A DNA stretch of 57,774 nucleotides, the filler included, from Candidatus Desantisbacteria bacterium CG1_02_49_89 (GTDB taxonomy: Bacteria; Desantisbacteria; UBA1551), in NCBI GenBank assembly GCA_001871075.1. It is 4 parts of 4 records of this genome, joined end to end, with 100 filler letters (N's around TTAATTAATTAA, not from the genome) between each part and the next. Parts side by side here need not be neighbours in the genome. Positions count along the whole stretch, not along the records: positions 1 to 15,843 come from MNUP01000009.1; positions 15,944 to 31,483 come from MNUP01000030.1; positions 31,584 to 45,898 come from MNUP01000073.1; positions 45,999 to 57,774 come from MNUP01000035.1. One strand, given 5' to 3'. Below are positions 451 to 53,827 of the stretch, piece after piece. The position numbers and the translations under genes were made by a program. The notes under the pieces are model-generated. The model was not told the DNA's origin and made no database searches. It was given only the letters and a program-made list of their open reading frames with translations. The number at the start of each line of letters is the position of its first letter. Within the stretch, counting starts at the first letter, position 1.

Positions 451-472
451 TCCCAAAGGGATCCCTTCGGGA
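451..472 (+). repeat. Minimal double hairpin TCCCAAAGGGA-TCCCTTCGGGA (family C)
   Basis: A second copy lies at 4715-4736; this one splits the GAAG|CAATCC motif. Confidence 0.85.
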
Positions 473-484
473 CAATCCGATGAA

Positions 485-545
485 GTCGTTGCGAGCGATA
501 GCGAAGCAATCTCGTATTGGATTGCTTCACTTCGTTCGCAATGAC
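485..545. repeat. GTC(A/G)TTGCG...GAAGCAATC / GATTGC...CGCAATGAC palindromic element
   Basis: Related copies at 346-478 (interrupted), 3547-3659, 11280-11344 and 43685-43712 (half). Confidence 0.85.
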
Positions 546-595
546 ATATTGTGTGAAAATCCCGTTTTTCTCTGTGACCCCTGTGGTTAATTTTA

Positions 596-1657
596 TTAGC
601 AGGGAGTGAAATCCATCTTCTTATTGACTCGTAAAATGAACTCGCTGATCAGCTTCGTGATGTTATCCAGGTCGGTTGTGCTCACAAGTTCCACAGGCGA
701 GTGCATGTACCTGTTCGGTATGCTTATCAGCCCTGTCGCAACCCCCGACTTCGTGAGTTGTATTATGCGCGCATCCGTTCCGGTAGGGCCTGATATACCC
801 TCCACCTGGTATTTTATCTTCTTCTCCCTGGCAATCTTGACGAACAGGTCAAAGACCTTCGCGTTTATATTCGGGCCCCTTGCGATAACAGGCCCGCCGC
901 CGATCTTTATATCCCCTATTTTCTTCTTATCCGCGCCGGGCATGTCCATCGCGAAGGTTACGTCTATGGCAATGCCTATGTCAGGGCTTATTCCGTACGC
1001 GCTTGTCTGAGCTCCCCTTGTGCCAAGCTCCTCCTGCACGGTGGCAACCCCGTAAACAGCCGCCTGCGGCTTTTTCTTCGAAAGGACCCTGAGCACCTCG
1101 CTCACTATGAACGCGCCTATGCGGTCATCGAATCCCCTTGCTACTATTCTGTCCCCCCTTAGCTCCTCAAATCCGACTGCCGGGACCGCCGGGTCGCCGA
1201 CCTCTACAAGCGATTTGGCTTCTTTTTCGTTCTTCGCGCCTATGTCGATCCAGACATTGTCAGGGCTGATGATCTTATTGACTTCGTCCCCTTCCTGCAG
1301 ATGCCTGGGCTTTCTTCCGGTGACCCCGTGGATCTTCCCTTTCCTGGTCTTTATCAGCACCCTCTGGCCCGGTACAAGATGGTAGTCTATCCCGCCTATG
1401 GGAGAGAAATAGATAAAACCTTCCTTGTCTATGAACTTTACCATATACCCGATCTCGTCGATATGGCCGGCGAGCATTACCCTGGGGCTTCCGTTCTTGT
1501 TCAGGACCCCGGCAGTATTGCCGTGCACGTCCGTCTTCACTTCGTCGGCAAAAACCTTTGTCCGCTCCTTCCATATCCTGGCTGAATCTTCCTCGTACCC
1601 GGACGGGCTCATGCTGTCCATAAACCTTTTAAGAAACTCTTTCGGCTCCTTTTCCAT
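596..1657 (-). CDS. M42 family metallopeptidase (TET-like aminopeptidase)
   Basis: SPSGYE, AGHIDEIG, IDIGA, FDDRIG, QEELG, DVT and RYMHSPVE motifs. Start moved to MEKEPK after a GGAGG RBS. Confidence 0.93.
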   Translation of the reverse strand: MEKEPKEFLKRFMDSMSPSGYEEDSARIWKERTKVFADEVKTDVHGNTAGVLNKNGSPRVMLAGHIDEIGYMVKFIDKEGFIYFSPIGGIDYHLVPGQRVLIKTRKGKIHGVTGRKPRHLQEGDEVNKIISPDNVWIDIGAKNEKEAKSLVEVGDPAVPAVGFEELRGDRIVARGFDDRIGAFIVSEVLRVLSKKKPQAAVYGVATVQEELGTRGAQTSAYGISPDIGIAIDVTFAMDMPGADKKKIGDIKIGGGPVIARGPNINAKVFDLFVKIAREKKIKYQVEGISGPTGTDARIIQLTKSGVATGLISIPNRYMHSPVELVSTTDLDNITKLISEFILRVNKKMDFTPC

Positions 1658-1753
1658 TATTCCTCCTCGTTCATCGTGCATCGTCCGTCGTTCATCGCAG
1701 TTTCAATAAAAATAAATTCCTTGCAGTTACGCTGACACGTTGACGCGCTTTTG

Positions 1754-3454
1754 CTATTTGCCGGAATATATCTTATCGTACAGCTTGCTGATCAAAGGCG
1801 AGCGCGCGTCCACTCTTTTCATGGCGTCCATGCAGTTCAGGGCTCTTGTTTTGTCTCCCTGTTTCAGGTAAAGCAATCCTGCCTGAAAATAGTTGTCGCA
1901 GGCAACGGACGCCATCTTGCTTTTTTCATAAACAACCCCCAGGTTAAAGCAAGCGTTGGCAAACTCAGGATTGATCCGCAGCGCCGCGTTGTAATCATCA
2001 ACCGCGTTTTTATTCTGGCCTTGAGCTTTATAAGTGTTGCCCCTGTTGTAATAAGCGTCCGCGTATTGAGGTTTCACTTCAACGGCTTTTGAAAACTCCC
2101 TGATCGCGCTGTTGTAGTCTCCCTGGTAATAATATGAATTCCCTTTATCCAGGTAGATATTTGCGTTGTTGGGGTTCAGCTCTATCGCCTTGTTGAAATC
2201 GTTTATAGCGTCGCTGTATCTCTTGAGCTGGTTTTTAACAATACCGCGGTTATAAAAACCAAGGTAATTCTTGGGATCAAACGCTATTGCCTTTGAAAAA
2301 TCATTTACCGCGCTTTCCATATTGCCCAGCAGTATGTACGTATGGCCGCGGTATATGAAAGCAGTACTGTATTTCGGATTAACTTCAATTGCCTTGGTGA
2401 AATCATTCAGCGCGTCTTTATAGAGACGCAGGCGCAGGTAGGTATAACCGCGCATATTATAAAAATAGTCTGTCTTGGGGCTGAGCTCAATTGCCTTCCC
2501 AAAATCTTTTTCTGCCCTCATGTAATCATCCCGGTTAAAATATTCCCTGCCGCGGTTATAATAGGAAAGCGAATCTCCGGGATCTTTCTCTATTGCTTTT
2601 GTGTAATGTTCCATCCTTACTTTCTTGCCGTCTTCTTTGTCGCCGATAATGATGTTCAGGGTCCTTTCGTAGCCATAATGGATCACCCTGGCTTCCACCT
2701 TCTCTCCGGGTGTTTTCATCTCCACCGCGCTGACAAGTTCCGGGTAGCTGGCGATCGGCCTGCCTCCGAATCCAATAACCACGTCGTTCGGTTCCAGCCC
2801 TGCTTTTTCCGCGGGGCTTGATGAAAATACTTCCAGGATTAACGCCCCGGTCTTGCCCGGCAGGTTCAGCTGCTTTACGGTCTTATCGTCTATGCTACCC
2901 ATCGATACACCCAGCCATCCCTCTTTCTTCTGCGATCCTGCTGTTTGGGCAATCCCTGACCTGTCATAACCGGCTTTAAGGCCGGCTATTCTGTTCACCG
3001 CGGCCTTGATAGATCCCAGCAGTCCTTCTTCCTTGCAATCGGCGCATTCCTCTGTCTCGGCTTTTTCTATTTTTCCCGACTGCACATCTACTATTTTCAG
3101 GTTTACGAGGTAAATGTCCCCGACTTTTCCCACAGAGCCTGTGAACATCTTCTGCACGCCCAGCAGCTTGCCTATCTCAACGATCTTTGCCTGGTCCACT
3201 GCGCCCGAAAGCTGGAACTGCTGCTCCTTGAGGACGGACTCCATGTTCTCGCGCGTTATGATCGCGAACTTATCAGTGTTCACAAGCTGTATACGCAGGT
3301 AGTCTGATATCGTTGAAGCCACTCCCTGAGAGATCCCTTCTTTCGCTTCCAGGTCAAGCACAGCGGCGGCTGTCTTCTGCTCTTCCGCGTTCACTGCCCA
3401 CACCCCGCCTGCCAGCCACAGCACCAGAAACAATGGAATAAAAAATTTCTTCAT
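1754..3454 (-). CDS. Secreted CsgG/TolB-N-like + PDZ + TPR-repeat protein
   Basis: Signal peptide; AVLDL...IITRENMESVLKEQ...EIGKLLGV (CsgG-like); GWLGV...SPAEKAGL..NDVV (PDZ); about 8 TPRs of the YYNRG...A..DF.KAIEL type. Confidence 0.85.
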   Translation of the reverse strand: MKKFFIPLFLVLWLAGGVWAVNAEEQKTAAAVLDLEAKEGISQGVASTISDYLRIQLVNTDKFAIITRENMESVLKEQQFQLSGAVDQAKIVEIGKLLGVQKMFTGSVGKVGDIYLVNLKIVDVQSGKIEKAETEECADCKEEGLLGSIKAAVNRIAGLKAGYDRSGIAQTAGSQKKEGWLGVSMGSIDDKTVKQLNLPGKTGALILEVFSSSPAEKAGLEPNDVVIGFGGRPIASYPELVSAVEMKTPGEKVEARVIHYGYERTLNIIIGDKEDGKKVRMEHYTKAIEKDPGDSLSYYNRGREYFNRDDYMRAEKDFGKAIELSPKTDYFYNMRGYTYLRLRLYKDALNDFTKAIEVNPKYSTAFIYRGHTYILLGNMESAVNDFSKAIAFDPKNYLGFYNRGIVKNQLKRYSDAINDFNKAIELNPNNANIYLDKGNSYYYQGDYNSAIREFSKAVEVKPQYADAYYNRGNTYKAQGQNKNAVDDYNAALRINPEFANACFNLGVVYEKSKMASVACDNYFQAGLLYLKQGDKTRALNCMDAMKRVDARSPLISKLYDKIYSGK

Positions 3455-3680
3455 AGATCATCCTTTTGCCATTAAGGCAATATTAACCACGTTAACCACA
3501 CGATTCCACTTTAACCATACGATTACACTAGATTTCCACCAGAAATGTCATTGCGAGGAATGAAATGACGAAGCAATCCAAGAGATTGCCGCGGGCTTTG
3601 CCTGCAGGCTTTGCCTGCACAACGACTTCGTCGGATTGCTTCACTTCGTTCGCAATGACAAGAAAAGTGAGATCGCGTGG

Positions 3681-4664
3681 TTAAAGTGTTATTATTTTAT
3701 TTTCGCGGATCGATCTTTTTACCGCAAGGCATATTTTCACGGATTCCACCCCGTCCTCTCCGGACGCAAGCGGCTTTTTGTCATTTATAACGCAGTCGAT
3801 GAAATGCGCGATCTCCTCTTTGAACCCGTCCGGCTTCGCGAAATTCTCGGTGTAAACCTTGTCGGGCTGAGAGCGGTAAATATATTGCAGGTTCCCGGGC
3901 TGGTCAAAATTTCCCTTTACCTCACACACCGCTTTCGCAGTCGTAAAACTCACTTCTTCTTTTGCGAACGCCCATTCAGAGCCGTATCCTGCTCCCACAC
4001 CCGCCATCCCGCCTTCTTTAAAAGATAAAGTAAAAATTCCGGTATCTATCTGTGGAGATCTGTGTCTCATAAAATAATTTCCGCCTTCAGCGTGGACCCG
4101 TTTCACGTCTCCCATAAAATACCGCAACAGATCAATTACGTGGACCGTGTTCTCGGTTATCGGGCCGCCGCCGTCCTGCTCATCCCAGAACCAGTCCATG
4201 TCCACCCTTCCGAGCGCGAATTTCACAAGAGCCCAGACAGGCCTTCCGAGATCCTCATCGCATTTTTTCTTTAGAAAGGCGTAAGCGGGCGCGAGCCTTT
4301 TTTTGAATCCTATCATAAGCTTCACCCTGTGCTTGCCGCAGGTGTCAACCATCTTTTTGGCGTCGTTAACGCTGGTGGACATCGGCTTTTCGCACATCAC
4401 ATGGACCTTTCTTTCAGCTGCCATCTGCGTAAGCTGCAAATGGGACCTCGGCGGCGTACAGATGCTTACCGCGTCCAGCTTCTCGCTCTTGAACATTTCT
4501 TCCGCGCTTGTATACGGCTTTGCCCTGTATTTTTCGCTGGCCGCTTTCAGCCTTTCGGGATTCATGTCCGCGGCAGCGGTTATTTCCACTTCGGGAACAG
4601 CCGCGTATTCTTCAAGATGCCTCATCCCTATCCCAAGCCCGATCACGCCCACCTTCAACTGCAT
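3681..4664 (-). CDS. Gfo/Idh/MocA family oxidoreductase
   Basis: VGVIGLG, DAVSICTP..H, VMCEKP, GGG.I....H.IDL motifs; AAAGGAG RBS before MQLKV. Confidence 0.92.
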   Translation of the reverse strand: MQLKVGVIGLGIGMRHLEEYAAVPEVEITAAADMNPERLKAASEKYRAKPYTSAEEMFKSEKLDAVSICTPPRSHLQLTQMAAERKVHVMCEKPMSTSVNDAKKMVDTCGKHRVKLMIGFKKRLAPAYAFLKKKCDEDLGRPVWALVKFALGRVDMDWFWDEQDGGGPITENTVHVIDLLRYFMGDVKRVHAEGGNYFMRHRSPQIDTGIFTLSFKEGGMAGVGAGYGSEWAFAKEEVSFTTAKAVCEVKGNFDQPGNLQYIYRSQPDKVYTENFAKPDGFKEEIAHFIDCVINDKKPLASGEDGVESVKICLAVKRSIRENKIITL

Positions 4665-4773
4665 AAGATCTCCTTTAACCACGGATTAACACGGATTCTC
4701 TCGGATTTAGCTTTTCCCAAAGGGATCCCTTTGGGACAACTTTCAACCTTCAACCTTTAACCTTTAACTTTGT

Positions 4774-5475
4774 TTAACACTGGCCGTAATATGCAGACTT
4801 GCCATGCTTCCGCAGGAAATGCTTGTCCAGCAAAGCGCGCCCGATGGACCTGGTCCCTGAATTTATTTCCAGCGTGAAATACGCCATTTTCGCGATCTCT
4901 TCAAGCATTATGCTGTTGTAAACAGCGCCTTCAGGGGTTTTCCCCCACGCGAATGGGCCATGCGAAGCCACGATGACCATTTCAGTGATTTCAGGAGACA
5001 GGCGCATTTTTTTGAAAGTTTTTACTATCTGTATCCCTGTCTCTTTCTCGTAATCCGACTTTATCTGCTTCGCGCTCAGGTTAAAAGTGCAGGGAATGCT
5101 GCCGCGCACATAATCAGCATGTGTTGTTCCAAAACAGGGAATTGGTTTTTTCGCCTGCGCCCAAGCAGTCGCATACGCTGAATGTGTGTGCACCACCCCG
5201 CCAATATCCGGGAAGCTTTTATATAAGACAACGTGGCTTCTCGTGTCCGAAGAAGGCTTGAATCTGCTGTCCACGGTCTTGTTGTCCAGGTCAACAAGCA
5301 CTATTTTTTCCGGAGTGAGCTCTGAATAAGGGACACCGCTTGGCTTTATGGCGACAAGACCGCGTTTCCTGTCTATGCCGCTTGCGTTGCCGAACGTGCG
5401 GACCACAAGCCCGCTCTTCCACAGCTCCATATTGCATTTCCATACGATCTTCTTCAATTCCTTCAAAGACGCCAT
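4774..5475 (-). CDS. araD: L-ribulose-5-phosphate 4-epimerase (class II aldolase fold)
   Basis: FGNAS, IKPSGV.Y, KPSSDT..H, GGVVHTHS..ATAWAQ, GTTHADY and C-terminal LLDKHFLRKHG..AYYGQ; start at MASLK. Confidence 0.93.
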   Translation of the reverse strand: MASLKELKKIVWKCNMELWKSGLVVRTFGNASGIDRKRGLVAIKPSGVPYSELTPEKIVLVDLDNKTVDSRFKPSSDTRSHVVLYKSFPDIGGVVHTHSAYATAWAQAKKPIPCFGTTHADYVRGSIPCTFNLSAKQIKSDYEKETGIQIVKTFKKMRLSPEITEMVIVASHGPFAWGKTPEGAVYNSIMLEEIAKMAYFTLEINSGTRSIGRALLDKHFLRKHGKSAYYGQC

Positions 5476-16310: not shown

Positions 16311-18899
16311 TTAAAATTTTATTTTAAAGGTTTTGATCTCGAAGGGGCGGAAACTGGCGGAGACCGTATTATCAATAACTTTAATAGGACTAAGGGAGTC
16401 TTCAAGAAGGTTGGCTTCTTCGGCGGAAACAACTTTCGCAAGGCTTCCGCCAGAGGCGGATCCGCCAATCTCTGTGGCGGAAAAGCCCTGCACTCCATTA
16501 AAAAATTTTATTTCAACGTTCTCCGCGGGCTGGCCTGCCGCTTCGTACGCGCGCAGGATCAAGCCGCCCTTCTCGTCCTGCTTCAGCGCTGAAACAACGA
16601 TATTAGGATGTGAGATCTCAAGCAAACCCCACCTTGCAGGCAGGTCTCCGGGATGGGATCCTGCCAGGCGGCAGATGAGCGGGTTGTTGAACTCAAGGCC
16701 TTCCCTGAAGATCCCGGCTTCCTGCCAGGTCCCCTTGTGCGGGACAAGCGCGTATTCAAATTCCAGCTCTTTTTCAAGCTCCAACCCTGTATCAGAAGAC
16801 ATCCCCTCTTCGTAGCCGCCGGCAAAAGCGTAGGATGTTATGCGGGTTGAGCGCATAAGCGAAAGCATCATTACGCTGTCCGCGACGTTGTTGCCAGGCA
16901 GGCCCTTGTTAAGAAGCGCGACCCCCCTGTCAGGACCCGAATGATCTATCCAGTTCTGCGCGGGGAATTCAATGCCGTCAGGGCGTTCTATCGCCCCGAA
17001 CGGGATCTCGTGGAAACTCCTGCTCTTTCCGACCGCAACCGGAAAAAGCGCGCGGTAACGGACGAACTGCGCCCTGTTCTTTATGCGCGTGCGGATCTCA
17101 ATCCTGCGCAGGTTCCTATAAAGGCGTATTTTCGTGGAAAAAGTGCCGCTGCCGAAAAGATGCGTTACTTCAAACTCGCTGTAAACGCTGCCCTTTACTG
17201 TTTTTTCAGGCCTTCCCTTGAACTGGTTACTGAAAACAGCGCCTATTCCAGGTTTCGGCGCCGGATGCCTGTCCTTCATGGCTATAGCCGATCCGCCGTC
17301 CAGCGACCTGTAGAGTTCCCAGAAATCCCCTTTGTCCTGCTCCTGGACAACCACGTTCGCGGAACCGCCCAGCACGCTCATTTTATCCGGCTTTATCTGG
17401 ATCTTCGTTATCGTCCCGGCTGCGGAATCTAGTTCAACGGAACAATACCTGCCCTCCATTGAATTCTCTTTTTCCATCCCCCGGGCCGGCTTGGTAACAG
17501 GGGATCTAAAGAACGTCTTAAGCCTGAACACCGAATAGCCGAAAGCGGGAATGTCTTCCGCGACAAAAGTAACCCTTGCCTTGCTGATCGTCTCGTTATC
17601 ATAGCGTTCAACGCCGGAAAGCTGGACCGCAACCTCCCGGTTGTCCGGGTCGAACAACTTAATATCCAGAACTTGCCTGCTGGTAAAAACCATCTCAATA
17701 CTTGACGAGTCCGCGCGCTTCCATCCCAGGGAATTGAAAACAACAATGGCCTGGCCTTCTCCGCCTTCTGTATTTATTCCAAGGACAAATTCTTCCAGCC
17801 TTTTCTCAAATTCCGCTGCTGCTGTTTCCCCGGAGAAGTTATATCCTTTTAGCGTATCCTCGTAAACCTTATCGGTCATAACGCCTGACATCAGATCGTG
17901 CGCCTGGTTAAAAAGCAAGGGCTCCCACGCCTGCCTGAGAGTATCATCTCTAACAGACATACCAGTGCATTTAAGCATTACTCCCAGTTTTTCGGCTGCG
18001 AGAAGCAGGTTCTCGGTCTCCCTTAACTTTTGCTTGAGCTCTATCCTCGAGCTATATGTGCCCTGGAATATCGGGTTGAGCTCACCCTTTATAATTGGCC
18101 TTTCGGGTTTTTGCGAAACCTCCTTTTCGTATTCAGAGGGAACCGCAAAGCTTATTTTGAAGGGCGGGGTATCGGGCTGGGCATTGAATTTCTCCGCAAG
18201 ATCAGGCAGGTGTTCCTCAGGCGGAGCTACGTCAACTCCCGCGAGGATCACCCTGCAGCTGCCTTTTGCCCTGGGCACGAGCGCGTCAAATTTTTTCTGA
18301 AAGAACTCGGTAAAGCTCTTCAGGAACTGCGGCGAGCCGTATCCGTCTCCGTAAGGAACCCAGAAGGCGGGTATCCTGGAGCCGTCAATCCCCTCCCACA
18401 GGAATTCCACGGGTGTGCCCGGGTCCGGAACGCCGCGGGAAAACCAGAACGATGTATATCCCGCAAGCTTTAAAAGCTGGGGCATCTGCGCGTGGTGGCC
18501 GAACGTGTCCAGCTGCCAGCCTGCTGTCACCTCAACGCCCAGTTCTCTGCGGAAAAATCCCTTCGCGTGAAGCACCTGGCGGACGAACGATTCGCCGCAG
18601 GGCATGTTGACGTCAAGCATCACGTGCGTGCCGCCGCAGATCTCAAGCCTGCCTTCGGATATGAATTTTTTAAGCTTGTCGCCTTCCGGAAAAGGATATT
18701 TTTTAAGGAAGGGCTCCACGTAGCAGGACTGGTCAAGCACGAACCTGTAATGAGGGTATTTTTCAAGTATCGCCAGCGCCTTGAGGATGTTAGGCAGCCC
18801 TATTTCAAGGTATTCTGCCCGCGTCTTAAACACAGCGCCTTCCCAGTGGGTGTGGGGAATAATAAATAATAATGTGGGCTTGATTTCCTTAGCTTTCAT
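16311..18899 (-). CDS. Alpha-mannosidase (GH38)
   Basis: IPHTHW, GESFVRQ, W.LDTFGH..Q.PQ, F.WEG.DGS, GTYSSR, NQAHD..SG, VFNSLGW.R and PFEIKT motifs. Confidence 0.93.
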   Translation of the reverse strand: MKAKEIKPTLLFIIPHTHWEGAVFKTRAEYLEIGLPNILKALAILEKYPHYRFVLDQSCYVEPFLKKYPFPEGDKLKKFISEGRLEICGGTHVMLDVNMPCGESFVRQVLHAKGFFRRELGVEVTAGWQLDTFGHHAQMPQLLKLAGYTSFWFSRGVPDPGTPVEFLWEGIDGSRIPAFWVPYGDGYGSPQFLKSFTEFFQKKFDALVPRAKGSCRVILAGVDVAPPEEHLPDLAEKFNAQPDTPPFKISFAVPSEYEKEVSQKPERPIIKGELNPIFQGTYSSRIELKQKLRETENLLLAAEKLGVMLKCTGMSVRDDTLRQAWEPLLFNQAHDLMSGVMTDKVYEDTLKGYNFSGETAAAEFEKRLEEFVLGINTEGGEGQAIVVFNSLGWKRADSSSIEMVFTSRQVLDIKLFDPDNREVAVQLSGVERYDNETISKARVTFVAEDIPAFGYSVFRLKTFFRSPVTKPARGMEKENSMEGRYCSVELDSAAGTITKIQIKPDKMSVLGGSANVVVQEQDKGDFWELYRSLDGGSAIAMKDRHPAPKPGIGAVFSNQFKGRPEKTVKGSVYSEFEVTHLFGSGTFSTKIRLYRNLRRIEIRTRIKNRAQFVRYRALFPVAVGKSRSFHEIPFGAIERPDGIEFPAQNWIDHSGPDRGVALLNKGLPGNNVADSVMMLSLMRSTRITSYAFAGGYEEGMSSDTGLELEKELEFEYALVPHKGTWQEAGIFREGLEFNNPLICRLAGSHPGDLPARWGLLEISHPNIVVSALKQDEKGGLILRAYEAAGQPAENVEIKFFNGVQGFSATEIGGSASGGSLAKVVSAEEANLLEDSLSPIKVIDNTVSASFRPFEIKTFKIKF
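16446..16481. repeat. Double hairpin TCCGCC..GGCGGA-TCCGCC..GGCGGA (36 nt) inside the mannosidase CDS
   Basis: Read directly; sits in the loop of a REP-like GCAGGGCTTT|AGCCTTGC hairpin. Confidence 0.85.
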
Positions 18900-26500: not shown

Positions 26501-27621
26501 CCTGTTCCATCCATTCCGGGAAGGCTGTCCCTGAACACCGCGATGCTCCCGTTCTTCCCTTTTTCCACGTCAGGTTTCCCTCCGGGCATACCGCTCATCT
26601 CCTTTCCGGTTATCGGTATCGGCTCTGAAAACTGTATGGGCGCGAGCGGTTGCTGCCAGTCCTGCCCGAGCCAGGCGGCGATCACCACCTGCCCGGTTGA
26701 AAGGACCGGAGCAGTAAAAGAAAAAGTCGCCTTTCCTTTTCCTTTAACTTCCGGCGACTCTGATTTCAGAACGTTGTTGGACATATCCTTCATTTCGCAG
26801 TTCAGCCTTGCTTTTCCGGCTGAGGAAGGAATGCTGTATTCCACTGTTGTCATAAATTCCTTTCCTTCCACCACCTCGCCTGGCAGGTCTGCGATGGCGC
26901 AGGTTGCTTCCTTGCCGGGAGGCTCCCCGGATTCCTTAACTTCGGATTTCGAAAAAATCTCTAATTTTGACACTGATTCGACACTGATCTTACTGGTTTC
27001 TTCAGACTTGGAAGCTTCCTTCTTTTCTTCCTTCGGCTGGGGCGCTGATCTTTTCTCCACAACAGGGATAGGATCCGAGAATTTTATGGGGGCAACCGGG
27101 TTCTGCCAGTCTGTGCCGGCCCAGCAAGCCATGACTATTGCCTCCATCTGGTCCATTTTCGGCGCTACAAAAGTAAGGGTTTTCTCGCCCTTGCCCTTTA
27201 CCCTCGGGGACTGGGCTTTCAGGACATTGACGCTGTCCTTGTCCTTCATCTCGCACTGCAGGATCTGCTGGCCCGCGTCCTCGGGAATGTCGTATGAAAC
27301 CGTGACCTCGAACTTCTCGCCTTCGCCCACCTCGGACGGCAGCTTTGTGAATTCACAGGAAGCGTCTTCAGCCCAGCAAACCGTAGAAAGTGCCCACCCT
27401 GCGCAAAGGCAGGGCGAGGTCTCGCCCCGATATTGATCGGGGCGGATAAGGTGTAAGGTGTAAGGCAGGCAGAAACTAAAAGTTAAAACCAAAGGAATCA
27501 CCACGGAGGCACGGAGTCCCCTACAGCTCCGGAATAAAATCGGAGCTAAACGCAGGGACCTTCGGGTCAGAACGGAGTTAATGACCCTACGGCACGGAGA
27601 AAACACAGGTCTTTTCTTCAA
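23554..27621 (-). CDS. Large secreted clan-A glycoside hydrolase, paralog of 19066-23022, with a repeat-expanded N-terminus
   Basis: GSNY, GINTFR.F, LGYDIQNEP, DFISHHVY and FGEFG motifs; two copies of the N-terminal domain. Start placed at the TTG 5 nt after GAGG (uncertain). Confidence 0.75.
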   Translation of the reverse strand: MKKRPVFSPCRRVINSVLTRRSLRLAPILFRSCRGLRASVVIPLVLTFSFCLPYTLHLIRPDQYRGETSPCLCAGWALSTVCWAEDASCEFTKLPSEVGEGEKFEVTVSYDIPEDAGQQILQCEMKDKDSVNVLKAQSPRVKGKGEKTLTFVAPKMDQMEAIVMACWAGTDWQNPVAPIKFSDPIPVVEKRSAPQPKEEKKEASKSEETSKISVESVSKLEIFSKSEVKESGEPPGKEATCAIADLPGEVVEGKEFMTTVEYSIPSSAGKARLNCEMKDMSNNVLKSESPEVKGKGKATFSFTAPVLSTGQVVIAAWLGQDWQQPLAPIQFSEPIPITGKEMSGMPGGKPDVEKGKNGSIAVFRDSLPGMDGTGIADAVVTGLRGSGFGVTVLDSEKIRNSSILNIENFDCLVIAGGADYFPASASASLLRFLTRGGDLVTLGGYAFKELVWNFNGKWMTKSQIEETISSVQPQNMLFDFEDEPSGWRRATNDVSTPGSLEADKGYKGKGAKIFIPGLTGWDNWSAGIDGSISEGQDLVCFWAKGSQRTKQIAVEIGERDGSRWIATVNMGTEWKHYCLLPEAFAYWKDNTSKGRGGKGDAVKLENASIISIGLAYSHTSVEGGQHEIWIDEVGIAKNPYPKMDLTARMKVPVFNDAYSAYVINDVAKAEINSAQALLESGLNLAGVTGGDFAIAYPNQTGGRYVPLINAYDKYGRYKGAIASMLVNYSKAMKNSVIACFGIKDPGFYKDPSFIPALSKIIGAMKNGLFLGSISPGRLTYEPGKEALFSARVCNLGSAAKQANAEISVVKDGKTVFSKAFEIGLEPGKNQAVECGWVTPMDAGSYMLRVVLRESGKGVSDIAEHMFDVAPMPPVQQGFMKVSADKKHLVYPDGKRFFCIGSNYHGWFDRCWNEWKEYFDPVKMELDFRKAHEAGINTFRLFLYKLADDIMKDDFHKIDIMLTFARRYDIHLLVHLARYGQMEKSQECIRKLCAHLKDEPMVLGYDIQNEPWLPAIIAEKYPAGIKLPITDIQDGVNKFGIYVGENLGEWTTFPKLKDNKVPMLDDEVVKAGDESFRIWIKLNKDAIREVDKNHLVTVGFNTPFSAFPCASELDFISHHVYVRPFSYDSVIQNITTFDRIAAVWPEKPVSFGEFGYSNGIMMGSRYLDFYSSAVGEMIHYLYPLSRGYEGSYKWMLNDNPNAWRGDDNFYEERFGFFYYDGTPFGHRKPIAHATQFLSEYINRAGPTGTMETAQAQNMIGTGYVFKGDKALFIGNTEYKSDGLQFKGGKPANVMLDWGSGKLKIMSTCDLQVKISPSKFLSTLKSGSKITGRNAGSKKDGDLLILDLLEGEAVTIQ
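27393..27446 (-). repeat. Double-hairpin element family A (54 nt, in-frame in a signal peptide)
   Basis: TCCGCCCCGAT-CAAT-ATCGGGGCGAGACCTCGCCCTGC-CTTTGC-GCAGGGTGGG; absent at the same site in the paralog. Confidence 0.92.
27518..27592 (-). repeat. Double-hairpin element family B, copy 3 (75 nt, in-frame)
   Basis: CCGTA-GGGTCA/TGACCC-GAAGG-TCCCTG-N5-AGCTCC/GGAGCT-GTAGGGG. Confidence 0.88.
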
Positions 27622-27839
27622 AGTTACCTCACAAAAATTACTTTTTAAACTACTTTTGCAACCACGAATTAGCACGGATTTCCACGAATTTCAAGCTTGT
27701 AAGCTTTGTAAACTACACTTGAAACCAAAGGTGAACACGGGTTAGATACATCAGGGCTGAAGCCCTGAGTTACAGTAAATTCCTTGCTGTTGATTCATAA
27801 CTCATAATTGATTTTGCCCGCTATGGTCTATGGACTGCG

Positions 27840-33117: not shown

Positions 33118-33164
33118 TCCGCCCCGATGGACATCGGGGCGAGACCTCGCCCCAAAGGGGCGGG
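33118..33164 (+). repeat. Double-hairpin element family A (47 nt, intergenic)
   Basis: TCCGCCCCGAT-GGAC-ATCGGGGCGAGACCTCGCCCC-AAA-GGGGCGGG; splits the GCCCTA|C end of a REP. Confidence 0.9.
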
Positions 33165-41592: not shown

Positions 41593-41688
41593 GCCCCGAC
41601 AGCTTTTGTCGGGGCGCAGACCCCCCTGTTTTATGCCGAAGGCATAGGAGGGGTCAAGCCCCAATGACTTTTGTCGGAGCGCCGGGGG

Positions 41689-42546
41689 TCAGTTAATTCC
41701 CAGTATCTTGTGGAACTGGGGAATAATCCTGACGTCTTCCAGGCTGTGCCCGGCGATCCGCTGGAATTCAAACAGGTCCTTATGGCGCTGCCCGGACGCG
41801 GGCTGGATAACCAGAGGGATCTTTCTGTCAACCCCGGCAACAAGAAGCGCTGCTTTTTCAATCTCCCGGGCGGTAGTCCTGCCTGTGACCACGACCTTCA
41901 CGAAAACCCTGTTCCCTGCCGCGCGCAGGAACCTTCGGTGTTTTTCCCACAGGTCTCTTCTACCTGTCGCGCTGGGGAATTTTATGTCCATTGCGACGAA
42001 ATCCACGTTTTTTATTATCCCGCGCAAGGCGGCAGGCAGCGTTCCGTTTGTTTCCAGGTAGATCCTGAAACCCAGGCCCTTCAGGTCCGGGATCAGTTCT
42101 TTCAGGAAATCCGCCTGCAGAAGCGGCTCTCCCCCGGTCAGGGAAATTGAATGATAGTGAAAAGTTGAAGGTTGCCCGCCCCGATTGATATCGGGGCGAG
42201 ATCTCGCCCCCGAGTAAGGGGCGGAAAAGTTGAAAGTTAAATACTCCTTCAAAACCGCGACAATATCTTTTGATGATATTGGATTTTTAAGTTTTAACCT
42301 TTCCCGCCCAATCAAAACGATTGGGCGAGGTCTCGCCCGCTGAAAAGACGGGCGGAGACTTTTGCAATCTGTAATCTGCAATTTATTTATACAATACTCC
42401 TGTCGCTTCCAGGAAAACCGGCTGTCGCAGTAATCACAGCGTCGAAGATTGCAGCCGGAGAAACGGATGAATATCTGCCTGACGCCGGCGTATATCCCCT
42501 CGCCCTGTATGCTGTCAAATATCTCCGCCACCCACGCGCTTCGCAT
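41689..42546 (-). CDS. queE: 7-carboxy-7-deazaguanine synthase (radical SAM) with two in-frame hairpin insertions
   Basis: EIFDSIQGEG...G.RQIFIRF.GCN, SLTGGEPLLQ, LETNGT, MDIK and R.IPQ.HK motifs. The start could be the GTG at 42576. Confidence 0.88.
   Translation of the reverse strand: MRSAWVAEIFDSIQGEGIYAGVRQIFIRFSGCNLRRCDYCDSRFSWKRQEYCINKLQITDCKSLRPSFQRARPRPIVLIGRERLKLKNPISSKDIVAVLKEYLTFNFSAPYSGARSRPDINRGGQPSTFHYHSISLTGGEPLLQADFLKELIPDLKGLGFRIYLETNGTLPAALRGIIKNVDFVAMDIKFPSATGRRDLWEKHRRFLRAAGNRVFVKVVVTGRTTAREIEKAALLVAGVDRKIPLVIQPASGQRHKDLFEFQRIAGHSLEDVRIIPQFHKILGIN
42175..42225 (-). repeat. Double-hairpin element family A (51 nt, in-frame in queE)
   Basis: TCCGCCCC..GGGGCGAGATCTCGCCCCGAT..ATCGGGGCGGG inside an AAAGTTG heptamer array. 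Confidence 0.9.
42303..42356 (-). repeat. Double-hairpin element family A (54 nt, in-frame in queE)
   Basis: TCCGCCCG..CGGGCGAGACCTCGCCCAATC..GATTGGGCGGG. Confidence 0.9.
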
Positions 42547-42583
42547 AGTGATTGTTTCATTAGTCCGATTGCCCACAAACTAT

Positions 42584-43666
42584 TTACAACAGGTTTATCG
42601 GGTATCTGCCGAACTCATGGACTGTCCTGTAAAACGCCAGAATGTTCTCAAGCGGCGTGGAGGGCGTTACCTCGCTGGATGAACCTATGAAATGCCCTCC
42701 TCCGGCAGAAGCATCTCTTATGCAATTCTTCACAGCTTCAATGACCTGTTCCTTCGTTCCCAGCGGAAGCACCTGCGAACAGTCCACGTTGCCCAGGAGT
42801 ATAAGCTTCCCGTGGTATTTTTTCTTAAGCAGCGCGATATCCATGCCCGCTATAGGCTCTATGGGATTGAGCCCGTCTATGCCCGCCTCGATCATGTCGT
42901 CAAGTATCTCCATAACGTTCCCGTCGCTGTGGAACATAACCTTCACACCGTGCGCGTGAAGCGCGTCGCATACCCTTCGGAGCATCGGTATGAAGGTCCT
43001 GCGCAGAAAAGCAGGAGAGAACATCAGCCGCCCCTTGTACGCTATATCGTCCCCCACCATGCACAGCGGGCACGCTTTTGCTTCACCGGCAACCTGGGCG
43101 TATCTTACGTGCTCTTCGCATCTGTTGTCAAGAAGCCGCTGCAAAGCTTCGGGAGCGTCATAGATCGCAGTTGAAAAAGTTTCAAGCCCCATCACGCTGT
43201 ATGACGCGTGGAACCCGCATCCGATGCACGGCACGAACATTGTCTTGGGCGCGAAAGCCTCCTGGCAGGTTTTTAACCACGGCAGCCATGAGTTTTGGTA
43301 ATAGTCAATAGGGGGCGGCTGGAAATCAAACGCCTTCAGGTCTTCCATGGTTCTTACGGCGTGCTTTGTCTCCCACCTTGTCTGGCCTGACACCAGTGTT
43401 TCAACGCATCCAGCCTGCGTGCCCTGCCCGTTCTGTTCCTGCGAAAAACTCTCGCCGAAACCCCTGCACAGGTCTATCCCCAGCCCGTGGTACACCCTGA
43501 CATTCGCCTTGAGCAGGTCGGTCTCGCCCGGCGCAAAATGCTCAAGGGCGTACCTGTTGTCCATATAATCCCAGATCGGGACCCTGTCTGCTTCGCAGAA
43601 ATTTGCGGACTTCATTATCCTGTCGTATATTTTCGGGTCAACCAGCTTTTCGCTGTAAAATCCCAT
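42584..43666 (-). CDS. UroD/MtaA-CmuA-like protein (paralog 3)
   Basis: DRVP, MGLE.F, GDDIA, FHSDGN, GIDG.NPIEP and TPLENI motifs. Confidence 0.87.
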   Translation of the reverse strand: MGFYSEKLVDPKIYDRIMKSANFCEADRVPIWDYMDNRYALEHFAPGETDLLKANVRVYHGLGIDLCRGFGESFSQEQNGQGTQAGCVETLVSGQTRWETKHAVRTMEDLKAFDFQPPPIDYYQNSWLPWLKTCQEAFAPKTMFVPCIGCGFHASYSVMGLETFSTAIYDAPEALQRLLDNRCEEHVRYAQVAGEAKACPLCMVGDDIAYKGRLMFSPAFLRRTFIPMLRRVCDALHAHGVKVMFHSDGNVMEILDDMIEAGIDGLNPIEPIAGMDIALLKKKYHGKLILLGNVDCSQVLPLGTKEQVIEAVKNCIRDASAGGGHFIGSSSEVTPSTPLENILAFYRTVHEFGRYPINLL

Positions 43667-43741
43667 TTAAATCCCACCAGAAATGTCATTGCGAACGCAG
43701 TGAAGCAATCTCATATAGACTTCTACTTGATACTTGACTCT

Positions 43742-45898
43742 TTATTTTAGTATCAGCAGAAGCGCGGCGAGGGAGAAAAAGAAGATCGCGGTTATTATCT
43801 TAACAGGTATTATATTTTTCTGCGAGAATTCAGCGAACTTCTTTGAGCCGACCCCGAAATACGCGAGCAGAAATACTATAATGAGGGGAATGATGAACAT
43901 CAGGTTATAAAGAAAAAGATAGAAGTAAGCCTGCGCCGCGAGGGCCGGGTCCTTGGTCATAAAAGCAATGGTCGGTATGTATATCTGTCCCGTGCACACG
44001 GCTTCAAGCAAAGAAACAAGCAGTCCCGTGAAAAACGCCCCGGCTATGATCAAAGGCGCGTTTATGTTTTTCCTTATCCAGAAATGTATGCTTTCCTTGA
44101 CTGCCCGGGGAAGCTGGAGCGCTATCCTGCTCGAATCGCCGGTTTTCTTGTAGATATACGCGTCATACAGGCTCATGCAGCCCAGGAATACGGCAACGGC
44201 AAAAATGGCGTAGAAGATAGCGGAAGAAACAACCTTGAACGCGGATATGCTTTGCAGGACCTTAAAAAGCCCCACGCCAAGCATGTAATAAGCGGCAAAA
44301 ACCCCTGCCGCGAAAAATATCCCGTTCAGCAGTATGTCCCGCTTGCTCCTGCCCGCGTAGGTCAGGAAAGAAATAAAAAATATGATAGTCGCGAAAGCGC
44401 AGGGATTTATACCGTCGATAAGCCCAGCGGCTATCACGGCAAACGGGCCGAAAGACCTGAACCTGCGGGCTATCACGCTTTCAGTATTAGCGCCTGCGGC
44501 CTGAAAGGTTTCGGAAAGAGTCTTTTTAAGCGGCTGGGTCTTCTTGGCCTTAATCGCGGCAAGCTCTTCTTCGATCAATTTTTCGAGCTTTTTCTTTATC
44601 TCTATGCTGCCAAGCAGACACCTTCCGCCCACATAAGCTTCCATGGGCACGCTTTTCTTTATCCCGTATTTTTCTTCAAGGCCCACGAGCATCTCGTAAT
44701 TTTCTTTTTTCGAAATATCGAATTCTTTTATTTCGACAGCACCGCCGTATTTGACCCTGATCCCCGGCAGCAACCCTCCCCTTATTTCCTCGCACTGGCG
44801 GCATCCCGGCGAATAAAAATACATAACCTGCAACGCGCCTTTTTGCTGTTTGTTCGGAGTCACAAACTTTTGACTTTTACCTTTTACCTTTTGACTTTTG
44901 ACTTGTATCTTCTCTTCGATTACAGGCCTTTTCACCCTTCCCGTTATCAGAATTGAACTCACCTGCTGGGTCGGGTCATTCGTCTCTATGTATAAGTTAT
45001 AGATAAATGTTTCTCCGAGGACTTCTTCGGAAAAGAAAAACAACTTTATACCTGATTCCCCGAGCGGCTGAATACTGTCCGAGGCAGGAAGAGCGCTAAT
45101 GCATTCGCAGGAAGCCCTTATTTTCCTTAAAACAAGTGTGTCTGACCCGATGTTGCGGACAGGTATCTCGCTTTCAACGGTCCTGCCCTTCTCTATCTCG
45201 CCCCAGTCCAGCTCATCCGGGACCATGATGAACGGGATCGCTCTTCCAAGCTTTGTTTCCGGGACGACCTTTAACGCGGCGGTTTCAGGTGCTGCCGTTG
45301 CTGCAAGTCTTTTTGCTTCCTGCAAAACATCGTATTCCGCCACAAGCGCGGCGGTCTGCGTGTCATCCGAAACTTTGTCGTTAAGCAGCGTCAGCTTGTA
45401 ATCAGAAACCTTCAATATATAATCTTTTTTCTGGATATAGAGCTTGTATGTTGACTGGCCCGGGAACTGGACAAGGTTCGCTTTTGTCGCGATCTTATCC
45501 CTTGTAAGCGTGATCCTGCCCGCGTATTCGCCGTTTTTGCCTGCCTGGACGATAACTGCGTTCCCGGATTTAAGCGGTTTTTCCATCAGGGTCTGCGTGT
45601 GCCCGCCTACAATAATGTCTATTCCTTCCACCTCTTTGGCTAATTTTTCATCCCCTTCGTCTCCGAGATGAGAAAGCACGACAACAATGTCTGCCTTACC
45701 TTTTGTGTCAGCAATGATCTTTTTCAAAACCGCTGCCGGGTCAAGGATCACAAGCCCTTCGATCTTTTCTTTGGGGAAGAAAAGGAACGCCCTGTCATTC
45801 ACAACAGACGCTATCAGGATCTTAAATCCGCCTATATCCTTGATTATGTACGGCTTAGTAAATAATGGGGACTGTCCCGATTTTTGTAAGTCAAAATC
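43742..45898 (-). CDS. Multidomain protein: 5'-nucleotidase-like metallophosphoesterase part + DUF1573 Ig-like + thioredoxin-like CxxC + CcdA/DsbD-like TM domain (5' end truncated at gap)
   Basis: VVLSHLG...IDIIVGGHTQ...QAG..G (metallophosphoesterase); N.GSDTL.L...ASCEC (DUF1573); FYSPGCRQC; GLIDGINPCAF...EAVCTGQIY. The frame stays open to the gap. Confidence 0.82.
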   Translation of the reverse strand, partial: DFDLQKSGQSPLFTKPYIIKDIGGFKILIASVVNDRAFLFFPKEKIEGLVILDPAAVLKKIIADTKGKADIVVVLSHLGDEGDEKLAKEVEGIDIIVGGHTQTLMEKPLKSGNAVIVQAGKNGEYAGRITLTRDKIATKANLVQFPGQSTYKLYIQKKDYILKVSDYKLTLLNDKVSDDTQTAALVAEYDVLQEAKRLAATAAPETAALKVVPETKLGRAIPFIMVPDELDWGEIEKGRTVESEIPVRNIGSDTLVLRKIRASCECISALPASDSIQPLGESGIKLFFFSEEVLGETFIYNLYIETNDPTQQVSSILITGRVKRPVIEEKIQVKSQKVKGKSQKFVTPNKQQKGALQVMYFYSPGCRQCEEIRGGLLPGIRVKYGGAVEIKEFDISKKENYEMLVGLEEKYGIKKSVPMEAYVGGRCLLGSIEIKKKLEKLIEEELAAIKAKKTQPLKKTLSETFQAAGANTESVIARRFRSFGPFAVIAAGLIDGINPCAFATIIFFISFLTYAGRSKRDILLNGIFFAAGVFAAYYMLGVGLFKVLQSISAFKVVSSAIFYAIFAVAVFLGCMSLYDAYIYKKTGDSSRIALQLPRAVKESIHFWIRKNINAPLIIAGAFFTGLLVSLLEAVCTGQIYIPTIAFMTKDPALAAQAYFYLFLYNLMFIIPLIIVFLLAYFGVGSKKFAEFSQKNIIPVKIITAIFFFSLAALLLILK

Positions 45899-47871: not shown

Positions 47872-47924
47872 TCCGCCCGTCTTTCAGCGGGCGAGACTTC
47901 GCCCACCCGGAAAGGATGGGCGAG
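47872..47924 (+). repeat. Double-hairpin element family A (53 nt, intergenic)
   Basis: TCCGCCCG..CGGGCGAGACTTCGCCCA..TGGGCGAG; splits CAC|GAAA of a CACGAAA array. Confidence 0.88.
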
Positions 47925-48118
47925 GAAATCACGAAAACACGAAATAAACAACTTTATAACCTTTATAAACTACCTTTTAACCACGAATTTCCACTAATTT
48001 ACACGAATTATTTTTAACTTTGGAAACTCTGTAAACTATGTAAACTTGTAAGCTTATCAGCCTAAAACTCTGACACGCTGATACGTTGACACGTTGATAC
48101 GCTTTAACTTGTTACTTG

Positions 48119-49308: not shown

Positions 49309-49374
49309 CCGTAGCCCGCCACGAATATTGGCGGGCGGAGGCCCCTGTATTGAGCTGCATAGCAGCTACAGGGG
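49309..49374 (+). repeat. Double-hairpin element family B, copy 4 (66 nt)
   Basis: CCGTA-GCCCGCCA/TGGCGGGC-GGAGG-CCCCTG-N5-AGCTGC/GCAGCT-ACAGGGG. Confidence 0.85.
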
Positions 49375-52450: not shown

Positions 52451-52540
52451 AATTCCTCCGGAATTCGTCATACGTCATACGTCGTAGGTCGTACGTTTAA
52501 ACATTTAAAACGTATGACGTAAGACGTTCGACGCTCGACG

Positions 52541-53341
52541 TTATTTAGCCCGTGCCATTTTTTCGAACTTCCTTGTGGCTTTAGCCACAAAATTGTAATA
52601 CTGCTTCCTTTTCAAAAGGGACGCCGCTTCCTCGTCCAGGAACACGTTGACCCTGCGGTGCAGCTGCAGGACGGAAGCGGTAACCTGCGCCGTTACCCCG
52701 CCCTCTATGGTTATGGAGATGACGTTCGCCTTGCTCTTCCCGTTCGCGAGCAGTATTATTTCCTTCGCCTCCATAACGGTGCCCACGCCCATTGTTATGG
52801 AATAAGTGGGCACTTCGCTCTGGTCTTTGAAGAAACGGGAGTTGTCCTGTATGGTTTCCTCTGTGAGCGTTTTTACCCTTGTGCGGGAGCCCAGCGATGA
52901 GCCCGGTTCGTTGAACCCTATGTGCCCGTCCCTTCCTATGCCCAGCACCTGCAGGTCGATGCCGCCGAATTTCTTTATGCGGCTCTCGTACCAGTCGCAG
53001 TATTCATCTATGTCGCACGGCTTCGCCATGCCGTTGGGCACGTGGACGTTCTTTATATTGATGTCCAGGTGCTTGAAAAGGTTCTCGCGCATGAAACGGA
53101 AATAGCTCTGTTCGTGGTCCTGCGCGATCCCCAGGTATTCGTCCAGGTTGAACGTAACCACGTGTTTGAAGCTCAGCCCTTCATCCTTGTGCAACCTTAT
53201 GAGTTCTTTGTAAAGCCCCAGCGGCGTGCTGCCGGTCGCAAGGCCCATCACAAGGTTCGGTTTTTTAAGCAGCCTGTCCTTTACCTCAAGCGCGGCTTCC
53301 CTGCTCATTTCTTCGTAATTCTTCAGTATGAATACCTGCAT
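52541..53341 (-). CDS. nagB: Glucosamine-6-phosphate deaminase
   Basis: GLATGSTP, TFNLDEY, GGIDLQ.LGIG.DGHIGFNEPGSS and ITMG motifs. Confidence 0.96.
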   Translation of the reverse strand: MQVFILKNYEEMSREAALEVKDRLLKKPNLVMGLATGSTPLGLYKELIRLHKDEGLSFKHVVTFNLDEYLGIAQDHEQSYFRFMRENLFKHLDINIKNVHVPNGMAKPCDIDEYCDWYESRIKKFGGIDLQVLGIGRDGHIGFNEPGSSLGSRTRVKTLTEETIQDNSRFFKDQSEVPTYSITMGVGTVMEAKEIILLANGKSKANVISITIEGGVTAQVTASVLQLHRRVNVFLDEEAASLLKRKQYYNFVAKATRKFEKMARAK

Positions 53342-53463
53342 GTCAACCCCCAATCCAATTATGAATTATGAATGATGAATTATGAGTCAAAAACAAGGAT
53401 TTTTTTATTTAAATTTAACTCCATGCAGTTGATTCATAACTCATAATTCATAACTCATAACTA

Positions 53464-53703
53464 TTATTTAAGAAGATTTTGAATAAAGTCGATTGCCTTG
53501 CCGACGGTCTTGACGTCAAGCGCGGCTTCCTCGTCCATGGTTATGTCGAACTCCTGCTCGAACGCCGCCACGAGCTCAAGGCTCTGTATGGATTCCGCCC
53601 CGAGGTCCTTTACGAAGTCAGACTCGTTTTTGATCTTTTCGGGCTGGACTTTCAGCTGTTTTGACACCACCTTCTTCACCCTTTCCTCAACGCTTCCTTC
53701 CAT
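53464..53703 (-). CDS. acpP: Acyl carrier protein
   Basis: 79 aa; F.KDLGAESIQSLELV...E.EFDI..E.A....TVG. The Ser sits in an atypical ES.Q context. Confidence 0.88.
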   Translation of the reverse strand: MEGSVEERVKKVVSKQLKVQPEKIKNESDFVKDLGAESIQSLELVAAFEQEFDITMDEEAALDVKTVGKAIDFIQNLLK

Positions 53704-53774
53704 TTTTCCTCCACTTGGGATTACGGTGATTATAACTGAGATTACGGTGATTATCTAAATTTAAATAATCGCTG

Positions 53775-53827
53775 TCCCTAAAGGACCCCTGCGTCTTGTC
53801 CCGATTCTTATATCGGGACTGCAGGGG
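53775..53827 (+). repeat. Hybrid double hairpin (family-C-like first half plus family-B second half, 53 nt)
   Basis: TCCCTAAAGGA-CCCCTG-CGTCTT-GTCCCGAT/ATCGGGAC-TGCAGGGG; removing it restores AATCGCTG|TAATC. Confidence 0.8.

Follow-up and report, generated by a model that had tools for sequence, protein, structure and literature searches.

Excerpts of PMC6006769 and PMC3733652 describe how Y1 enzymes cut and rejoin single-stranded DNA under the guidance of hairpins, how repetitive extragenic palindromic (REP) sequences form heterodimers and hybrid dimers, and how some REP sequences have inserted in frame within genes; for Stenotrophomonas maltophilia, the excerpt of PMC3733652 puts hybrid dimers between REP families at about 10%. 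Here we describe pairs of adjoining hairpins, termed two-hairpin cassettes, in DNA of Candidatus Desantisbacteria bacterium CG1_02_49_89 (GCA_001871075.1). The window, that is the whole stretch of DNA analysed, has 57,774 nucleotides and is made up of four contigs, C103-C106, joined by N runs rather than of one continuous stretch (C-numbers throughout are contigs of this assembly). To our knowledge, the way in which REP sequences spread is poorly understood, and direct evidence comes mostly from a handful of polymorphic proteobacterial sites.

Each cassette is a discrete insert whose borders are exact; the target is not duplicated, and several types of cassette occupy one and the same bond. 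In the family that we call A the unit is a doublet, the halves of which recombine, though not freely. Our favoured reading, to which we would assign a probability of roughly 0.6, is that these pairs are palindromic repeats, small and non-autonomous, which are akin to REPs and bacterial interspersed mosaic elements (BIMEs) and are moved by Y1 transposases. The draft assembly comprises 2.48 Mb in 150 contigs with a completeness of 93.5%, and the nearest relative among the genomes compared is related only at the level of the order. No Rfam family matched within the window, and among the papers listed for the word Desantisbacteria (10 of 27) none dealt with repeats. All the sequences quoted in a first-pass annotation of the window were found where it had placed them.

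Empty and filled insertion sites

Hairpins are abundant in this genome. A genome-wide census of perfect stems with loops of 3-12 nt, controlled with two block shuffles, found 1172 hairpins with stems of at least 8 bp (307 and 324 in the shuffles), 559 with at least 9 bp (77 and 79) and 203 with at least 10 bp (20 and 22), an excess of 3.7- to 10-fold over shuffled DNA. Crude open reading frames (ORFs) cover 0.87 of the genome; 684 of the 1172 hairpins with stems of at least 8 bp lie outside them, and the character of REP sequences, palindromic units of about 20-65 nt that are high-copy and mostly intergenic, is seen here as well. Copy numbers below refer to the whole genome. The family A unit, read in the orientation set by its linker, is TC-CGCCC[X]GGGCG-AGACCT-CGCCC[Y]GGGCG-GG, while in family C TCCCAAAGGGA precedes a second hairpin of 4 bp, the stem of which covaries (TCCC/GGGA, TTCC/GGAA, CTCC/GGAG or CCCC/GGGG); this family numbers 77 doublets in 76 contexts.

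Two repeated sequences, here called frames, occur both empty and filled. Frame 1 (..CCTGAGTTA/X/CAATAAAATTCCTTG) occurs in many paralogous copies within a larger repeat and is a hairpin of a further family, T, followed by the tag GTTA and then by CAATAAAATTCCTTG; inserts lie between GTTA and CAAT, at a bond 4 nt past the T hairpin. Frames were counted from regular-expression matches, and the 46 matches to frame 1 were distributed as follows.

Empty: 19 of 46
With a C-type doublet of 22 nt or a near variant of it: 7 of 46
With four C-type hairpins: 1 of 46
With a 47-nt A doublet, exactly from TC to GG: 10 of 46
With a 54-nt A doublet: 1 of 46
With an A/C chimera (the A module P described below, the linker, then a C-type doublet): 1 of 46
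Unrelated sequence caught by the expression: 7 of 46

One further empty frame 1 was recognized in the window by comparison with filled copies.

27751..27800, plus strand: hairpin of family T (TCAGGGC-tgaa-GCCCTGA) with the GTTA tag, CAGTAAATTCCTTG following without a gap

Frame 2, GACGAAG/CAATC inside a repeat that we call M, was found empty 83 times and six times with the 22-nt C doublet, one of the six being the window copy at 451-472. In both frames the inserts are precise, always fall at the same bond for a given frame and leave the target without duplication. The bases ahead of the insert are GTTA in frame 1 and GAAG in frame 2. More generally, the left flank is weakly (C/T)-T-N and the right flank C-A-A at frequencies of 0.45, 0.64 and 0.60; C has (A/T)TG before it and CAA after it, and both families favour C-A-A after the insert. 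Seven further loci carry serial runs of three to four C-type TCCC..GGGA hairpins. Taken with the predicted folds, the empty and filled frames display the features of a miniature element derived from IS200/IS605 insertion sequences (IS): both ends bear a hairpin, and there are neither inverted terminal repeats nor a target-site duplication (TSD).

The absence of TSDs had been put forward in the first-pass annotation for all the hairpin families. It holds at the empty and filled frames, but 43 of 100 A doublets lie between direct repeats of one 7-8-nt word, with a direct stretch of at least 7 nt on both sides, against 7% of controls, and where A doublets lie in tandem word tracts the word goes on beyond the insert. 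Deleting the stretch from TC to GG restores the period of the words perfectly in 16 of 100 cases and nearly so in 47 (1.3% and 3.8% among 548 control pairs). An origin of the flanking words as TSDs was considered and is rejected for frames 1 and 2, where there is no duplication; the word period also varies from 6 to 8. Inverted word arms around A show no excess (6 of 100 against 4% in the control).

Tandem words of 6-9 nt are a conspicuous component of the genome in their own right, with a total of 1994 tracts after merging, which span 55.5 kb, whereas shuffled DNA has 166; the midpoint lies outside crude ORFs for 1362 of the tracts. Window examples lie at 4655-4714, 4737-4775, 27447-27470 and 53715-53760, and usually the same word is found on both sides of a cassette.

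Related populations provide a further view of these sites. At one orthologous locus, with flanks about 87% identical, an A doublet is present in the related population and none in this genome; in another orthologous spacer, the word arms are the same but enclose a different element. A metagenome scan for A returned 114 stretches, 80 of which were classed: 50 are full-length copies of this population at an identity of at least 97.9%, five are partial or rearranged, nine show repeat-level matches or diverged flanks only, and 16 are unmatched. Among 23 stretches inspected, 12 have the A frame in other contexts and 11 appear to be chance matches in G+C-rich DNA. Public contigs from four runs that cover 31584-45898 are broken at repeats, and their joints are short-sided. 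In two metagenome loci, L075 and L089, set against C85:2586-2759, a segment of about 150 nt that includes an A half-element is repeated, either by tandem duplication or as an artefact of assembly.

Hairpin modules and their pairing

Expressed as units CGCCC..GGGCG, family A comprises 100 perfect doublets, 142 singles and no triplet among 242 chains. The linker is present in 45 of the singles, each with an adjoining partner that has one mismatch, and the total reaches 129 doublets when one mismatch is allowed; few of the remaining 97 single matches resemble true solo hairpins when judged by eye. The suggestion in the first-pass annotation that the pairs arise by sequential insertion of single hairpins is therefore not borne out for A, given the lack of triplets and the apparent rarity of solo forms. 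Linkers among the 129 doublets are AGACCT (77), AGACTT (36) and four rarer variants (16). The unit starts with TC in 95 of 108 unique contexts and ends with GG in 80 of them or AG in 20. All units share the same five-base feet, whereas inner stems and loops vary widely with pairing kept on both arms. When folded as single-stranded DNA, each copy being set against 200 shuffles, A copies form two separate hairpins, with energies between -17 and -20 kcal/mol and z from -3.8 to -6.3, and with none of the 200 shuffles as good.

Classing the A hairpins by their inner ends gave 55 classes. The 129 doublets contain 56 distinct left-right pairings, where fixed pairing would give about 31 and free pairing 68±2.3. 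Halves had been proposed to be interchangeable. They are not locked together, since the pairings exceed the fixed expectation and a single connected network of shared modules takes in 123 of the 129 doublets; equally, they are not free, the 56 pairings being fewer than in every one of 5000 shuffles (minimum 59) and some modules being polar. Module P (CGCCCCGAT-NNNN-ATCGGGGCG) has 26 partner classes and stands on the left 44 times and on the right 26 times. By contrast, the left/right counts are 47/0 for Q3, 0/33 for Q4, 0/16 for Q1 and 0/13 for Q2. Whole doublets have been amplified together with their flanks, Q3+Q4 having 29 copies. Exchange is visible where flanks, linker and partner are constant: P stands on the left at five loci that share their CTTACAC-word flanks, yet four different hairpins are found on the right, and in a CACGAAA-word frame with Q4 the left hairpin is either Q3 or P. 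The halves are unlike in 54 of the 56 pairings, so that the form of the REP doublets forming hairpins (REPINs), two inverted copies folding into one long hairpin, is not seen.

Five A doublets lie in the window, one of them (27393-27446) missing from the first-pass annotation. They are listed here with the other cassettes of the window and the gene that holds two of them.

27393..27446, minus strand: A doublet, linker AGGTCT as read on the plus strand, left anchor degenerate (CACCC); fold
33118..33164, plus strand: A doublet P+Q1, 47 nt, linker AGACCT; sequence and fold
42175..42225, no strand assigned: A doublet, 51 nt, palindromic linker AGATCT, in-frame insert in queE; sequence, fold and alignment
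42303..42356, minus strand: A doublet, 54 nt, oriented Q3 plus an AATC module, in-frame insert in queE; sequence, fold and alignment
47872..47925, plus strand: A doublet composed of Q3 and Q4 (linker AGACTT), with CACGAAA word tracts on either side, of the largest subfamily (29 copies by class); sequence and fold
451..472, plus strand: C-type 22-nt doublet (TCCCAAAGGGA+TCCCTTCGGGA) in an M-type repeat at the GACGAAG/CAATC bond; sequence and frame comparison
4715..4736, no strand assigned: C-type doublet that forms a perfect palindrome of 22 nt and is flanked by tracts of tandem words; sequence and fold
53775..53827, plus strand: B element, a C-like first hairpin plus a composite second, CCCCTGCGTCTTG[GTCCCGAT..ATCGGGAC]TGCAGGGG; sequence and fold
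16446..16481, no strand assigned: D doublet TCCGCC-aga-GGCGGA + TCCGCCA-atctctg-TGGCGGA, in frame within the GH38 ORF 16314-18899 (minus strand)
49311..49336, plus strand: REP with a GTAG tag, built as CCGCCA-N7-TGGCGG and related to the second D hairpin; sequence
41692..42576, minus strand: ORF of queE (7-carboxy-7-deazaguanine synthase) with two A doublets; family match and alignment

The near-identical first hairpin that had been reported for the copies at 42303-42356 and 47872-47924 is indeed one shared module (Q3, CGCCCG-tctttcag-CGGGCG), with one loop T that differs, but on the plus strand it is the second hairpin of 42303-42356 and leads only after orientation by the linker.

The other families are less uniform. 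Some 25 copies belong to B, namely 17 of 33 anchor matches and eight variants, and every one of them starts with the same C-like hairpin; the second is formed by a long stem, CCCnGCGTCTnG..CnGCnGGG, on top of which sits a small hairpin of one of several kinds. The copy at 53775-53827 had been taken for a fusion of C and B. Since a C-like first hairpin is the rule in B, it is an ordinary member, and its second hairpin recurs letter for letter at C38:15825. The second D hairpin belongs to a large CCGCCA-N7-TGGCGG group with many GTAG-tagged members; another window hairpin with a GTAG/CTAC tag lies at 23452-23473.

Two abutting hairpins had been described for every family, and the folds support this unevenly. 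It is true of A and of D (16446-16481, two hairpins, -13.7 kcal/mol, none of 200 shuffles as good), while the B copy at 53775-53827 combines a 3-bp first hairpin with one long second (-16.5 kcal/mol, again none of 200). For C the case is weak: the copy at 451-472 has two 4-bp hairpins at -3.7 kcal/mol, a value reached by 78 of 200 shuffles, and that at 4715-4736 prefers a single 9-bp hairpin (-8.1 kcal/mol, 5 of 200 as good). The idea that A, B, C and D form one modular system survives in part, through the first hairpin common to B and C and through the shared bond and single chimera of A and C. Against it, partners come from the same family in 147 of 184 abutting hairpin pairs (A-A 96, T-T 43, D-D 6, B-B 2; mixed 37) and D stands apart, no bond in common with the other families having been seen.

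Three of the cassettes named in the first-pass annotation sit in ORFs, the two A doublets in queE and the D doublet in a gene for a GH38 alpha-mannosidase. The queE ORF matches its family in two blocks, residues ~15-62 and 143 onward, and its product has 295 residues as against 226-267 for most homologues. In an alignment with the QueE of a same-order relative, the extra residues fall into gap blocks of 17+4 and 16 that coincide with the 54-nt and 51-nt doublets. These inserts of 18 and 17 codons keep the frame, and one of them lies between the arms of a 15-nt direct repeat (14 of 15 identical). The D doublet lies, in frame, in the C-terminal domain of the GH38 protein, where its peptide reads SATEIGGSASGGS, and falls in a 17-residue gap of a homologue that is 43% identical over 204 aligned positions. 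Cassettes can lengthen enzymes, QueE among them, by 17-18 residues while the frame stays intact. Of twelve A doublets situated deep within long ORFs, 11 have lengths divisible by three, compared with 20 of 89 intergenic copies, a count that is partly forced by the definition of lying inside an ORF and so is not independent proof, at least one case being a spurious extension of an ORF. A 1373-residue ORF at 23557-27675 (minus strand) was considered as rpoB and rejected, NCBIfam giving no match at 1e-10. The first ~95 residues of this ORF have a non-coding appearance, so that its true start probably lies downstream of the A doublet at 27393-27446.

The A linker pattern was found in none of 40 other genomes searched, and a 19-nt A motif gave nine single matches in unrelated taxa of a genome collection, which is the level expected by chance. 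Long A-like doublets were also seen to abut the apparent 5' starts of tRNA genes (GGAGAGGTGGCCGAG..) at C81:19390-19660, C113:3754-3812, C109:317-346 and C142:1207-1235.

Transposases and the origin of the cassettes

The assembly has ten places that match Y1_Tnp (IS200/RAYT, the latter being REP-associated tyrosine transposases) and none that matches IS110, TnpB, DDE_Tnp_1 or rve. Two genes on C23 and one on C13 score above the NCBIfam cut-off for REP transposases and one on C83 above that for IS200. His-x-His motifs with a downstream Tyr are visible in all nine printed Y1 ORFs. The two C23 genes (160 residues) lie within head-to-tail arrays of T-family hairpins, and a candidate gene on C111, identified by the Y1_Tnp search of the assembly, is flanked by hairpin arrays of its own; the arrangement known as a REPtron is thus found for the T family and for the hairpins of the C111 gene. 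Five of the Y1 genes (221-332 residues, one with a DnaA_C tail) resemble subclass 2.1 in length and motifs.

On C83, an IS200-type tnpA (3384-3995) is bracketed by two identical CCCCGCGG hairpins. This hairpin has 15 copies, 10 of them solo with both left-end and right-end outer flanks, and one pair brackets 128 nt; to judge from their flanks, the solo forms look like products of deletion between the two hairpins. The expectation that longer elements with the same two hairpins around an ORF might exist is realized for this family, but no parent element was seen for A, B, C or D, a long parent with tnpA between A-D hairpins not being found in an assembly that is 93.5% complete.

Other mobile or repeated DNA was noted in passing. 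Four Y1 genes of the subclass 2.1 kind (C38:3652-4426, C114:4753-5535 and those on C13 and C100) are each bracketed by a short inverted pair built on GGGACAG or GGGGACGG, motifs that have 4-11 copies. A repeat of about 170 nt resembling a miniature inverted-repeat transposable element (MITE) occurs at C19:47078-47244 and at many contig ends, with a fragment at 473-540 of the window; its ends are inverted over 13 nt (CTAGTGTGGTGTC), and its inner hairpin was counted 29 times. The hairpin CCTCTCCC-tcgag-GGGAGAGG, at 31290-31340 and at the ends of C104, C129 and C150, belongs to a repeat of more than 200 nt common to about 30 contig ends.

Movement of the cassettes by Y1 enzymes is suggested by this census, by the shared bond 4 nt past a RAYT-type hairpin and by the published properties of such enzymes. 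One or more of the Y1 (HUH) transposases of the genome would cut and ligate the cassettes as single-stranded DNA, with the constant feet and linker offering the surface recognized by the protein and the tops of the hairpins left unconstrained. The mobile unit of A would be the doublet. New left-right combinations might then come from exchange of hairpins between copies, or from fast joint change of both arms, rather than from free assembly of single hairpins. The sites used are bonds beside the foot of another repeat's hairpin, the interior of 7-8-nt word tracts and sometimes, in frame, genes.

Several observations weigh against this reading. No A or C cassette lies within 350 nt on either side of the ten Y1 places; one B copy lies about 75 nt upstream of the C13 gene, which may be chance (rough p ~0.15). 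The five genes of subclass 2.1 type resemble a class that the excerpt of PMC6006769 lists as not REP-associated. Neither A nor C has a GT[AG]G or CGTC tag at the hairpin foot, no conserved target tetranucleotide was seen, the preference being limited to C-A-A after the insert, and neither an excision product nor a circle junction was seen. The cassettes were 100% stable in the near-identical population contigs aligned in detail. Finally, the gene for a cassette enzyme could be missed because the assembly is incomplete to the extent given above and repeats occupy 201 of its 300 contig ends.

Other origins can be imagined for the doublets. They might be the left-end and right-end hairpins of a lost or unassembled IS200/IS605-type element, in the manner of palindrome-associated MITEs and as the first-pass annotation suggested in speaking of a left-end/right-end junction, a possibility that we regard as unlikely though not negligible. 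PATE-type elements are miniature IS200/IS605 derivatives. The strictly double form of A, the polarity of Q3 and Q4 and the lack of duplication on insertion all fit such remnants, and the C83 tnpA family, with its 128-nt derivative and 10 solo hairpins out of 15, sets a precedent in the same genome. However, no A-D hairpins surround an ORF, all 45 singles with a linker have a degenerate partner beside them, P is used on both sides, the left end shows no conserved tetranucleotide and TnpB was not found. Serial insertion, in which each hairpin is a mobile unit of its own and a doublet records two hits at one bond, seems to us less probable still. It would explain the frame 1 chimera, which reads as P and linker ahead of a C-type doublet, the four C-type hairpins in series in one frame copy together with the seven further runs of three to four, and the head-to-tail T arrays beside the C23 genes. 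For A it sits badly with the absence of triplets, with so few solo-like forms among 97 singles as against 129 doublets, with the fixed 6-nt linker and with the amplification of whole Q3+Q4 doublets along with their flanks.

The last of these accounts, which we find the hardest to sustain, is that the elements are immobile parts of the host genome selected for a structure-dependent job such as terminating transcription, stabilising RNA or binding a protein. Stems do stay paired while their sequence changes, co-directional ORFs flank 56 of the 70 copies that do not overlap a crude ORF, and such roles are credited to REPs in excerpts of PMC3733652 and PMC6006769. Yet one and the same frame occurs both empty and filled, inserts lie in frame in queE and the GH38 gene, orientation is unbiased with respect to adjacent genes (13:12 and 19:12), no T-run follows the stems of the printed copies, and the Rfam search of the window was negative. 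A function might still have been gained after insertion.

Returning to movement by Y1 transposases, a bolder and quite tentative extension would be that the genome runs a cassette exchange for its intergenic DNA. A few docking bonds, at the feet of RAYT-type hairpins, at the feet of M repeats and in word tracts, would receive A, C and B-type cassettes that are swapped, or recombined hairpin by hairpin at their feet, by Y1 enzymes acting in trans, the nick of one enzyme beside its own hairpin admitting foreign cassettes. Were this so, the exchange would be a combinatorial and still active builder of much of the non-coding DNA of this lineage, and would seed in-frame peptide inserts in enzymes.

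Relation to known systems

A single assembly here amounts to a natural experiment, in which dozens of paralogous frame copies are either empty or occupied by several cassette types at one bond. Its Y1 candidates number about ten, the other four families searched for are unmatched, and it supplies exact substrates and targets for tests of Y1 enzymes outside the GTAG-tagged REPs. Should the cassettes be inert, what remains is a clean inventory of the extreme load of repeats in a genome from a candidate phylum.

Rickettsia palindromic elements and in-frame REPs (PMC3733652, PMC6006769) resemble the queE and GH38 inserts in being repeats of 17-18 codons in housekeeping enzymes that leave the ORF open, although the sequences and the lineage are different. 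The IS200/IS605 elements and their miniatures (PMC6006769) have subterminal hairpins, no terminal inverted repeats, no TSD and a single-strand mechanism, as is seen or supposed here and as the C83 family illustrates; the cassettes differ in having no recognizable pair of guide and target tetranucleotides and, for A-D, no parent element.

In REPINs (Bertels and Rainey 2011, PMC3116915) the doublet is likewise the replicating unit and is non-autonomous, but it consists of two inverted copies of one REP that make one long hairpin, whereas A is composed of two unlike hairpins that fold separately. The REP dimers of Di Nocera et al. 2013 (PMC3733652) also have units with unlike stems or loops, and that paper has REPs lodged inside other palindromic repeats and in-frame intragenic copies. 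What distinguishes the present case is that exchange takes place within a constant frame and that alternative families are found at an identical bond beside empty copies; the tags also differ.

The REP/BIME and RAYT/REPtron systems, such as the E. coli Y, Z1 and Z2 REPs (PMC3333891; PMC6006769), also have short, high-copy, mostly intergenic palindromes divided into subfamilies, pairs with short linkers, mosaic clusters and several families plus Y1 genes in one genome, two of the Y1 genes here lying in their own T-family arrays. They differ in that A and C have no GT[AG]G tag and no Y1 gene beside them, and in that A is strictly a doublet, its hairpins abutting over a fixed 6-nt linker and not being inverted copies of one another. 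The type of cassette is a known one, but its untagged, mix-and-match form is unusual.

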